Shown one piece after another: positions 44,383 to 45,163 of a DNA stretch of 64,000 nt. Below the pieces are notes generated by a model. That model ran no database searches. It was not told the DNA's origin and saw nothing but the letters and a program-made list of their open reading frames with translations. Origin of the DNA: a candidate division LCP-89 bacterium (GTDB lineage Bacteria > Electryoneota > B3-LCP); the NCBI GenBank assembly GCA_025774555.1, contig JALGVT010000004.1:12013-76012 (forward strand), written 5' to 3'. Numbering within the stretch: the first letter of the stretch is position 1; every line of letters starts with the position of its first letter. Both the position numbers and the translations under genes were made by a program.

Positions 44383-45163
44383 AGACTGGACACTGTAGTT
44401 GTAAAACCTAGCTAAATGCTGGAATATCCGGTGTATCCTGACCTACTCGCTCCAATTGTTTTGGGAGCAGTGACAATGGTTCAGGTGCGGACAATCAGCA
44501 GGAAAGGCTTCAATTGCTGAATGTTAAAGAAATACCACCAAAAATCGGCTATTACTTAGCCGGATTTACGGATGGTGAGGGAAGCTTCAACGTATCTTTC
44601 AGACCCCGTGAAGATTACAAAAAGATACCGTGGAAAATCTCAGCCTGTTTCAATGTATCACAGCGCGATAAGGTGATTTTAGCGTTGTTTAAAAAACATC
44701 TTAAATGTGGAACGTTGAGGCAGAGGAGAGACGGCCTCTGGTATTTCGAAGTGAACAATCAGCGCGCCATTGTTGAAAATGTTATTCCGTTCTTCAGAAA
44801 ATTCGGTTTTCTATCAGCAAAAAAAAAGCGGGACTTTTCGAAATTCTGTAAAATTGCTGTATTGATTACCGCCGGAGATCACCTTCACATATCGGGATTA
44901 AAAAAGATCCTGGAGATCAGACGTGAAATGAACGATGGTGGAAAACGAAAGTATGAAGAAGGGGATATCCTGAGGCGAATTGAAGAATCCTCAGAGACTA
45001 CACGCTAAGCGTCCCGCAAAAACGGGATGATGATATAGTCCGATCTGCATAGCGATATGCAGAGCGCGGCAGAAATGACCGCGCCACTCATCCGGGAGGA
45101 TAGACGCTTGCGCGCCCTCCGGCGTATTCTTGTCTGTCACCTGGAAGAGAAGTAACAAAAATG
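44383..45163 (+). mobile_element. group I intron in 23S helix 69 (after E. coli U1917)
   Basis: The exon junction GGCCGTAACTAT|AACGGTCCTAAGGTAGCGAAATTCC restores the universal H69 sequence. The 5' exon ends in T and the intron ends in G. The internal guide GTAGTT (44395-44400) pairs with exon AACTAT, giving a U-G pair at the splice site. Confidence 0.85.
44514..45008 (+). CDS. LAGLIDADG homing endonuclease (single-motif, homodimer type)
   Basis: 164 aa with the YLAGFTDGEGSF motif. It lies entirely inside the intron. TTG start as in the ORF track. Confidence 0.9.
   Translation: MLNVKEIPPKIGYYLAGFTDGEGSFNVSFRPREDYKKIPWKISACFNVSQRDKVILALFKKHLKCGTLRQRRDGLWYFEVNNQRAIVENVIPFFRKFGFLSAKKKRDFSKFCKIAVLITAGDHLHISGLKKILEIRREMNDGGKRKYEEGDILRRIEESSETTR

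Follow-up and report, generated by a model that had tools for sequence, protein, structure and literature searches.

The interrupted 23S rRNA gene

The window, that is, the entire stretch of 64,000 nucleotides analyzed here, harbors an rRNA operon in the order 16S–tRNA–23S–5S around a complete 23S rRNA gene, as identified with Rfam (Table 1). The operon is situated within a contig of more than 64 kb and has protein genes on either side. With 3,788 nt, the 23S rRNA gene compares to 2,925 positions in the bacterial LSU model of Rfam, and it gave the single match across the whole genome (an assembly of 86 contigs), which makes it the sole assembled copy. [quoted passage not shown]

In the alignment to the LSU model, one 782-nt insertion separates ...GGCCGUAACUAU from ACGGUCCUAAGG. 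The initial annotation had placed a group I intron after U1917 in helix 69; the LSU alignment confirmed this site and all of the coordinates given for it, and the removal of 44383–45163 indeed regains the universal 23S rRNA sequence. The last exon base is U1917, counted from the pseudouridines of helix 69 in the established E. coli numbering. The junction is ambiguous by one A, and 44384–45164 could equally be written as the intron. The first version was preferred because of the rules of an exon-final U and an intron-terminal G and because of the covariation in P9.0 described below.

Two intron-less relatives from the same family match both exon halves at 89–95% identity, and the two alignments abut. 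This leaves the insert as the only large difference; a target-site duplication is absent. The identity and collinearity of the exons also bear on the question of whether a foreign, intron-bearing piece of a 23S rRNA gene might have been joined into the contig during assembly or binning. Ribosomal RNA operons are often mis-assembled in metagenome bins, and the only sequencing run found to contain the ORF, the hydrothermal-vent DNA run X1, covers it with two short contigs (0 mismatches, approximately 3x) that do not bridge the junctions. However, besides the collinear exons, three observations argue against an artifact, which we consider scarcely conceivable: the operon is positioned inside a long contig between protein genes, at least 75 further genomes carry such an insert at this very site, and the intron tail contains a repeat that recurs on other contigs of the genome and in relatives within the family.

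Table 1. Features of the interrupted 23S rRNA locus and copies of the nested repeat. Positions refer to the window unless a contig is given. Paired cells and pairs with changes on both sides were counted in homologous L1917 introns.
Feature	Position	Strand	Cells paired	Both-side changes	Remarks
23S rRNA gene (host gene)	42365–46152	+			Rfam LSU_rRNA_bacteria, 2812 bits, model positions 1–2925
Group I intron, L1917, helix 69 loop	44383–45163	+			781 nt; LSU alignment, Rfam Intron_gpI (E 1.2e-9), covariation, collinearity
P1	44375–44402	+	98%	2/10	Exon end and first two intron bases (44375–44384) with guide 44393–44402
P10 (candidate)	44388–44391 / 45168–45171	+			L1 GGAC with 3' exon GUCC
Ribozyme 5' half	44407–44515	+			P2 absent
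P3	44407–44412 / 45004–45009	+	99%	5/6
P4	44417–44422 / 44495–44500	+	99%	1/6
P5	44427–44430 / 44488–44491	+	98%	4/4
P5a	44437–44443 / 44478–44485	+	80%	7/7
P5b	44445–44453 / 44464–44471	+	81%	6/8
AGGAAAGG, Shine–Dalgarno-like	44500–44507	+			6 nt before TTG; doubles as P6 5' strand
P6	44501–44503 / 44988–44990	+	100%		58 introns
P6a	44508–44515 / 44978–44985	+	88%	6/6
LAGLIDADG homing-endonuclease gene	44514–45008	+			164 aa, TTG start, TAA stop
Motif YLAGFTDGEGSF	44553–44588	+
Ribozyme 3' core	44978–45062	+			Aligned by Rfam Intron_gpI
P7	44996–45000 / 45036–45040	+	100%	2/5	G44996–C45040 presumed guanosine-binding pair
P8	45012–45016 / 45023–45027	+	84%	5/5
P9.0	45043–45044 / 45161–45162	+			3' strand AU
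P9	45045–45051 / 45056–45062	+	100%	6/7	GCGA loop
P9.1	45064–45069 / 45079–45084	+			Minimum-free-energy fold; peripheral region 45064–45150
P9.2, extended	45087–45093 / 45144–45150	+			Minimum-free-energy fold
Host-lineage intergenic hairpin repeat	45091–45139	+			Tip of P9.2, approximately 45 nt
Terminal guanosine G45163	45161–45163	+			With P9.0 3' strand; marks 3' splice site
Repeat copy, same genome (G000)	C66:13044–13087
Repeat copy, same genome (G000)	C66:14533–14578
Repeat copy, same genome (G000)	C52:118–185
Repeat copy, same genome (G000)	C36:66172–66192

Fold of the ribozyme

The secondary structure from P1 to P9.2 was built by hand and then tested on 58 homologous L1917 introns, with the 3' partner of each helix slid by one or two columns as a control. 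The core helices P1, P3, P4, P5, P7, and P9 are paired in 98%–100% of the cells, compared to 1%–66% in the slid controls, and compensatory changes are found in 18 of the 28 pairs of P3, P4, P5, P7, and P9. For the peripheral helices P5a, P5b, P6a, and P8, the slid controls were paired in 32%–63% of the cells. The group I core proposed at the outset is thus backed by covariation over 58 homologs.

The pairing of the internal guide GTAGTT (44395–44400) with the exon sequence AACUAU, which had been read from the window before, was borne out as well: the splice-site pair U44382·G44395 is a U·G in 57 of the 58 homologs. Double changes in P1 are confined to two pairs on the intron side (slid controls 19%–35%). 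The L1 loop reads GGAC or GACC in 51 of 60 introns; since the exon is invariant, P10 is presented as a candidate pairing. At the other end of the intron, both pairs of P9.0 are formed in 43 of 56 introns, in seven pair combinations (slid controls 2–6 of 56), and the terminal base is a G in 54 of 56. The covarying two-base-pair P9.0 fixes G45163 as the terminal guanosine and supports the same boundaries as the exon-final U and intron-final G that had been noted from the sequence.

Two loci, L013 and L014 in bins of Fraserbacteria and Bipolaricaulota, respectively, end in A instead of G, with P9.0 still paired (GU/AC). This recalls the L1917 intron of Coxiella, which is said to lack an ORF as well as the terminal G; the intron of the window shares the site, but has both the ORF and the terminal G. 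The sequence GUAACA (or GUUAACA) is conserved at 45152–45157 and in the same place, 5–6 nt before the terminal G, in most homologs. It copies GUAACU of the 5' exon, the partner of the guide sequence. A mismatch in P3, C44408·A45008, is the only such case among the 58 introns and is due to the TAA with which the endonuclease gene ends; the intron of G022, a genome of the same phylum, has TGA at this position and keeps the P3 pair.

With its complex P5abc region and without P2, the intron is IC1-like. The 3' part has a fold z-score of −6.1. The intron shares the P9.1 loop CAGAAAUGA with the introns of G022 and of G010, another genome of the phylum. Family-wide, P9.1 is only 62% paired because the region aligns poorly.

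A search with the Rfam model Intron_gpI (RF00028), by which the initial annotation had intended the class to be verified, gave a divided result. The model matches with E 1.2e-9 when reporting is by E-value, but the 43.7 bits obtained lie below the gathering score of 50, and at that threshold no match of Intron_gpI is returned. In the alignment, P7, P3', P8, P7', and P9 fit well, with the R and S elements aligned, whereas the 5' half of the model is pushed into the ORF. The low score is explained by the 495-nt ORF inside P6a, which splits the model. A homolog without an ORF, that of G010, reaches 49.8 bits (E 9e-12) with P3 to P9 properly aligned. The shortfall therefore lies with the model and not with the fold.

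Splicing

Helix 69 is an essential intersubunit bridge. As the genome has a single assembled 23S rRNA gene, the insert must be removed for a functional helix 69 to form, and it is from this and from the constrained ribozyme that we infer splicing. In a run search, the best run contained at most 29% of the sampled words, and the RNA runs among the four examined cover the conserved exons only, at huge depth and with reads from other organisms. Joints across 44382/45164 in metatranscriptomes were considered as a sign of splicing and rejected, because they come from intron-less 23S rRNAs of other species.

Alternatively, the insert might not be spliced at all and either be retained in the mature 23S rRNA or be excised without ligation in the manner of an intervening sequence processed by RNase III, leaving the 23S rRNA fragmented. 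Ligated exons are not seen in the RNA runs, none of which contains this organism, and the P3 mismatch as well as the foreign hairpin of approximately 50 nt in P9.2 would also speak for such an outcome. However, a conserved and covarying core, P9.0, and terminal G make sense only if the ribozyme is used, and neither a 781-nt insert nor a nick is likely to be tolerated in the helix 69 loop, which lies at the interface of the subunits. Precedents are available for both outcomes: according to the account of Everett (1999) cited in PMC11270868, the L1931 group I intron of Simkania is retained in mature 23S rRNA, whereas Cbu_L1917 of Coxiella burnetii, located at the very site considered here, is spliced from its precursor, as cited in PMC4990558. 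Altogether, an unspliced insert appears highly improbable.

The endonuclease gene

The initial annotation described a free-standing ORF of 164 aa with a single LAGLIDADG motif. Length and motif proved correct, and the product matches the Pfam family LAGLIDADG_1 (PF00961) with 64.9 bits compared to a cut-off of 23.1 (E 1.4e-17). The gene is not free-standing, however, but sits in the loop of P6a with its 3' end overlapping the ribozyme core. The last codons, encoding ESSETTR, together with the TAA stop constitute the R element, that is, P6', J6/7, P7, and P3'. Since the frame of some relatives ends right before this stretch, it is as RNA and not as protein that the tail is conserved.

Among proteins of known structure, the best match was 4lq0 (E 4e-34), and I-SmaMI and I-OnuI were also matched. 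The catalytic glutamate E22 (within LAGFTDGEG) aligns with the corresponding residue of 4lq0. In an alignment of 31 relatives (54%–75% identity), G17, F18, D20, G21, and E22 are invariant, and the mean column identity is 73%. The ORF is of full length, free of frameshifts and internal stops, and all of the approximately 60 homologs have open frames of about 150–230 aa. In comparison with six relatives, pN is approximately 0.18 (0.17–0.22) with synonymous sites saturated, so that only a pN much smaller than pS can be stated, and no dN/dS. To judge from this low pN and from the open frames in all homologs, the gene is under purifying selection.

By sequence, the protein belongs to the same fold family as the I-CreI-type homodimers and the monomers I-OnuI, I-SmaMI, and 4lq0. 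The best structural matches are two-domain mitochondrial enzymes, whereas the protein of the window comprises one domain and, by analogy, would have to pair with itself. A homodimer prediction scored 0.62, but one unrelated control reached 0.48, and the prediction was given no weight.

Translation would start at a TTG, whereas the nearest relatives use ATG, and expression may be weak for this reason. The Shine–Dalgarno-like stretch AGGAAAGG upstream of the start is conserved in all homologs, and we infer that it serves as the ribosome-binding site.

Distribution of the L1917 intron family

When one genome per species was scanned, at least 80 loci encoding relatives of the endonuclease were obtained. 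The relatives listed are 46%–74% identical at the amino acid level (56%–74% in all but one). The same L1917 site is used in at least 75 of the 80 listed species genomes, which belong to more than 20 phyla; among the matches listed are Omnitrophota, Acidobacteriota, Planctomycetota, Chloroflexota, Pseudomonadota, Bacteroidota, Ignavibacteriota, Thermotogota, Nitrospirota, Patescibacteria (including Peregrinibacteria), and many candidate phyla. Both L1917 flanks are shown at 60 of the 80 listed loci.

The L1917 family thus reaches beyond a few thermophiles, Coxiella, and the candidate phyla radiation (CPR) into dozens of uncultured non-CPR phyla. The opinion that rRNA introns are rare in bacteria, with which the locus had first been introduced, is valid for cultured species but does not extend to the uncultured ones, and it reflects the bias toward cultured species.

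In 15 more listed genomes, a second intron, at L1931, lies behind the L1917 intron, with a 14-nt micro-exon, AACGGTCCTAAGGT, between the two (L019, L023, L026, L031, L033, L037, L039, L047, L049, L052, L055, L063, L068, L072, and L073). Most of the remaining listed loci are cut by contig ends. An exception is L090 (2513–3616), where L1917 is intact. Here, AACGGTCCTAAGGT precedes an insert of approximately 1,090 nt that encodes a 70%-identical endonuclease and is flanked by these 14 exon bases as a direct repeat; either an ectopic move to L1931 or the rearrangement of a stack could account for this.

Within the phylum of the host (79 genomes), the site is uninterrupted in 29 genomes and occupied in four, namely with the gene in the genome studied here, G022, and G045, and without it in G010. 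In the family of the host, the site is empty in four of eight relatives and occupied in none. The intron is 71% identical to that of G022 at the nucleotide level (positions 1–703), and the best relatives overall reach approximately 71% nucleotide and 75% amino acid identity. The G010 intron (L008:1219–1567, minus strand, contig C121) is 349 nt long and ORF-less, its P6 region being replaced by unrelated sequence.

A tree of the endonucleases (171 columns) shows clusters by phylum near the tips and mixed phyla at deeper nodes, with an unresolved backbone. In this phylogenetic placement, which the initial annotation had called for, the protein of the window falls into a polytomy, with no robust grouping even with the G022 copy from the same phylum, and therefore no donor can be named. 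The patchy pattern is what a homing element would give that moves horizontally and is then lost.

A host repeat nested in P9.2

The tip of P9.2 carries a hairpin that recurs as an intergenic repeat in the host lineage. Intergenic copies with 86%–90% identity lie on three other contigs of the genome, namely C66 (two copies), C52, and C36. Further copies are present in the same-family genomes G001, G003, G004, and G005, and a few more genomes of the phylum give partial matches. The repeat is low-copy (1–5 per genome), its genomic copies sit between unrelated metabolic genes, and no Rfam family matched them. In the homologous introns, the hairpin repeat is absent; in the fold, it occupies the tip of P9.2, the counterpart of which in G022 is a plain 7-bp hairpin. 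Identity of the tail repeat with the 119-nt REP doublets at 49577–53088 was considered and rejected, as a BLAST search with the tail finds nothing else on contig C26.

We read the hairpin as a host repeat that probably inserted into a tolerant peripheral loop. Its nesting in P9.2 links the intron with this genome and is a sign of long residence; it likewise argues against an assembly artifact. The repeat is the sole individual feature of this copy, which adds no new mechanism. In a more far-reaching interpretation, the P9.2 hairpin would be a functional host RNA module, low in copy number, intergenic, and conserved among genera of the family, that was captured by the intron; what becomes of the excised intron RNA, or of the endonuclease mRNA, would then depend on a host factor recognizing the hairpin. 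If true, a selfish rRNA intron would have become linked to its host through domestication, but we regard this as very unlikely.

Presumed mobility of the element

Taken together, the insert is best explained as a self-splicing group I intron of the L1917 family with a homing-endonuclease gene, a reading based on sequence comparison to which we assign a probability of roughly 0.87. The intron would be transcribed within the precursor 23S rRNA. P1 would then arise from pairing between the guide at 44393–44402 and the 5' exon, which puts U1917·G44395 at the splice site; there, an external guanosine bound in P7 would cut. P9.0 and P10 would subsequently place G45163 in the same pocket, and the exons would be joined with helix 69 restored. 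The endonuclease would be translated from the TTG at 44514 with AGGAAAGG as the putative ribosome-binding site. If it resembles enzymes of the I-CreI type, it would form a homodimer; it would cut the partly palindromic helix 69 DNA of intron-less genes, whereupon repair would copy the intron into the break. We deduce homing from two observations: the gene is intact and under constraint, and the element is distributed patchily.

A different possibility is that the intron still splices, but is stranded, with an endonuclease that is barely made or inactive and with vertical inheritance only. Several observations point in this direction: the TTG instead of the ATG of the relatives, the single rrn copy, which leaves the enzyme without a target inside this genome, the time that the host repeat has had to enter P9.2, the lack of a close donor given the moderate identity to the best relatives, and the existence of ORF-less L1917 introns such as that of G010. 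On the other hand, the ORF is of full length with neither frameshift nor internal stop, all residues invariant in the family are retained, including the catalytic E22, and TTG is a usable bacterial start codon with a Shine–Dalgarno-like stretch 6 nt upstream. A stranded copy is thus considered unlikely, albeit worth keeping in mind, and an intron with an active endonuclease is the preferred reading. Under another speculative reading, the gene would be kept in a genome with one rrn copy because the protein also aids the folding of the ribozyme as a maturase, an activity not known outside organelles.

The element of the window is genuine but ordinary, as introns of this type have been reported from precisely this position before and prove to be common in uncultured bacteria. 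For the annotation of the genome, the 23S rRNA gene is to be split into two exons, and the 164-aa ORF should be listed as a homing endonuclease encoded by the intron. Surveys of rRNA genes or primers spanning helix 69 would mis-size this lineage.

Relation to known L1917 introns

The L1917 precedents named in the initial annotation hold, and beside Coxiella (PMC4990558), the site is occupied in Thermotoga and Synechococcus (PMC1995217) and in CPR bacteria (PMC11270868). A report of an L1917 intron in the phylum of the window was not found in the literature consulted, nor was an assay of an L1917 enzyme of this family.

In CPR bacteria, insertions at the site "23IS6" (position 1917) with LAGLIDADG_1 genes are common, encoding single-domain enzymes of approximately 180 aa, and their spread across lineages was put down to homing (Tsurumaki et al., 2024, PMC11270868). 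Site and Pfam family are shared with the window, although its host does not belong to the CPR. The enzyme characterized in the same study, I-ShaI, belongs to a different site, 23IS7.

Among the closest described counterparts are the LAGLIDADG introns at L1917 of Synechococcus sp. C9 (743 nt, 181 aa) and Thermotoga subterranea (774 nt, 168 aa; Haugen et al., 2007, PMC1995217). L1917 and L1931 introns were published as IC1-like without P2 (PMC1995217). The intron of the window shares with the two the site and a similar size (781 nt, 164 aa), an IC1-like core with a complex P5 and without P2, and a single-motif gene that starts in P6 and runs into the ribozyme core. It differs in its ORF, which stops earlier, in P3' instead of P9, in the TTG start, and in the host repeat in P9.2. 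The host, a Zixibacteria-like uncultured lineage, is also unlike Synechococcus and Thermotoga; this comparison was made with the published descriptions, so that the likeness in sequence is indirect. Relatives of the endonuclease with 54%–64% amino acid identity are encoded in genomes of Thermotogota.
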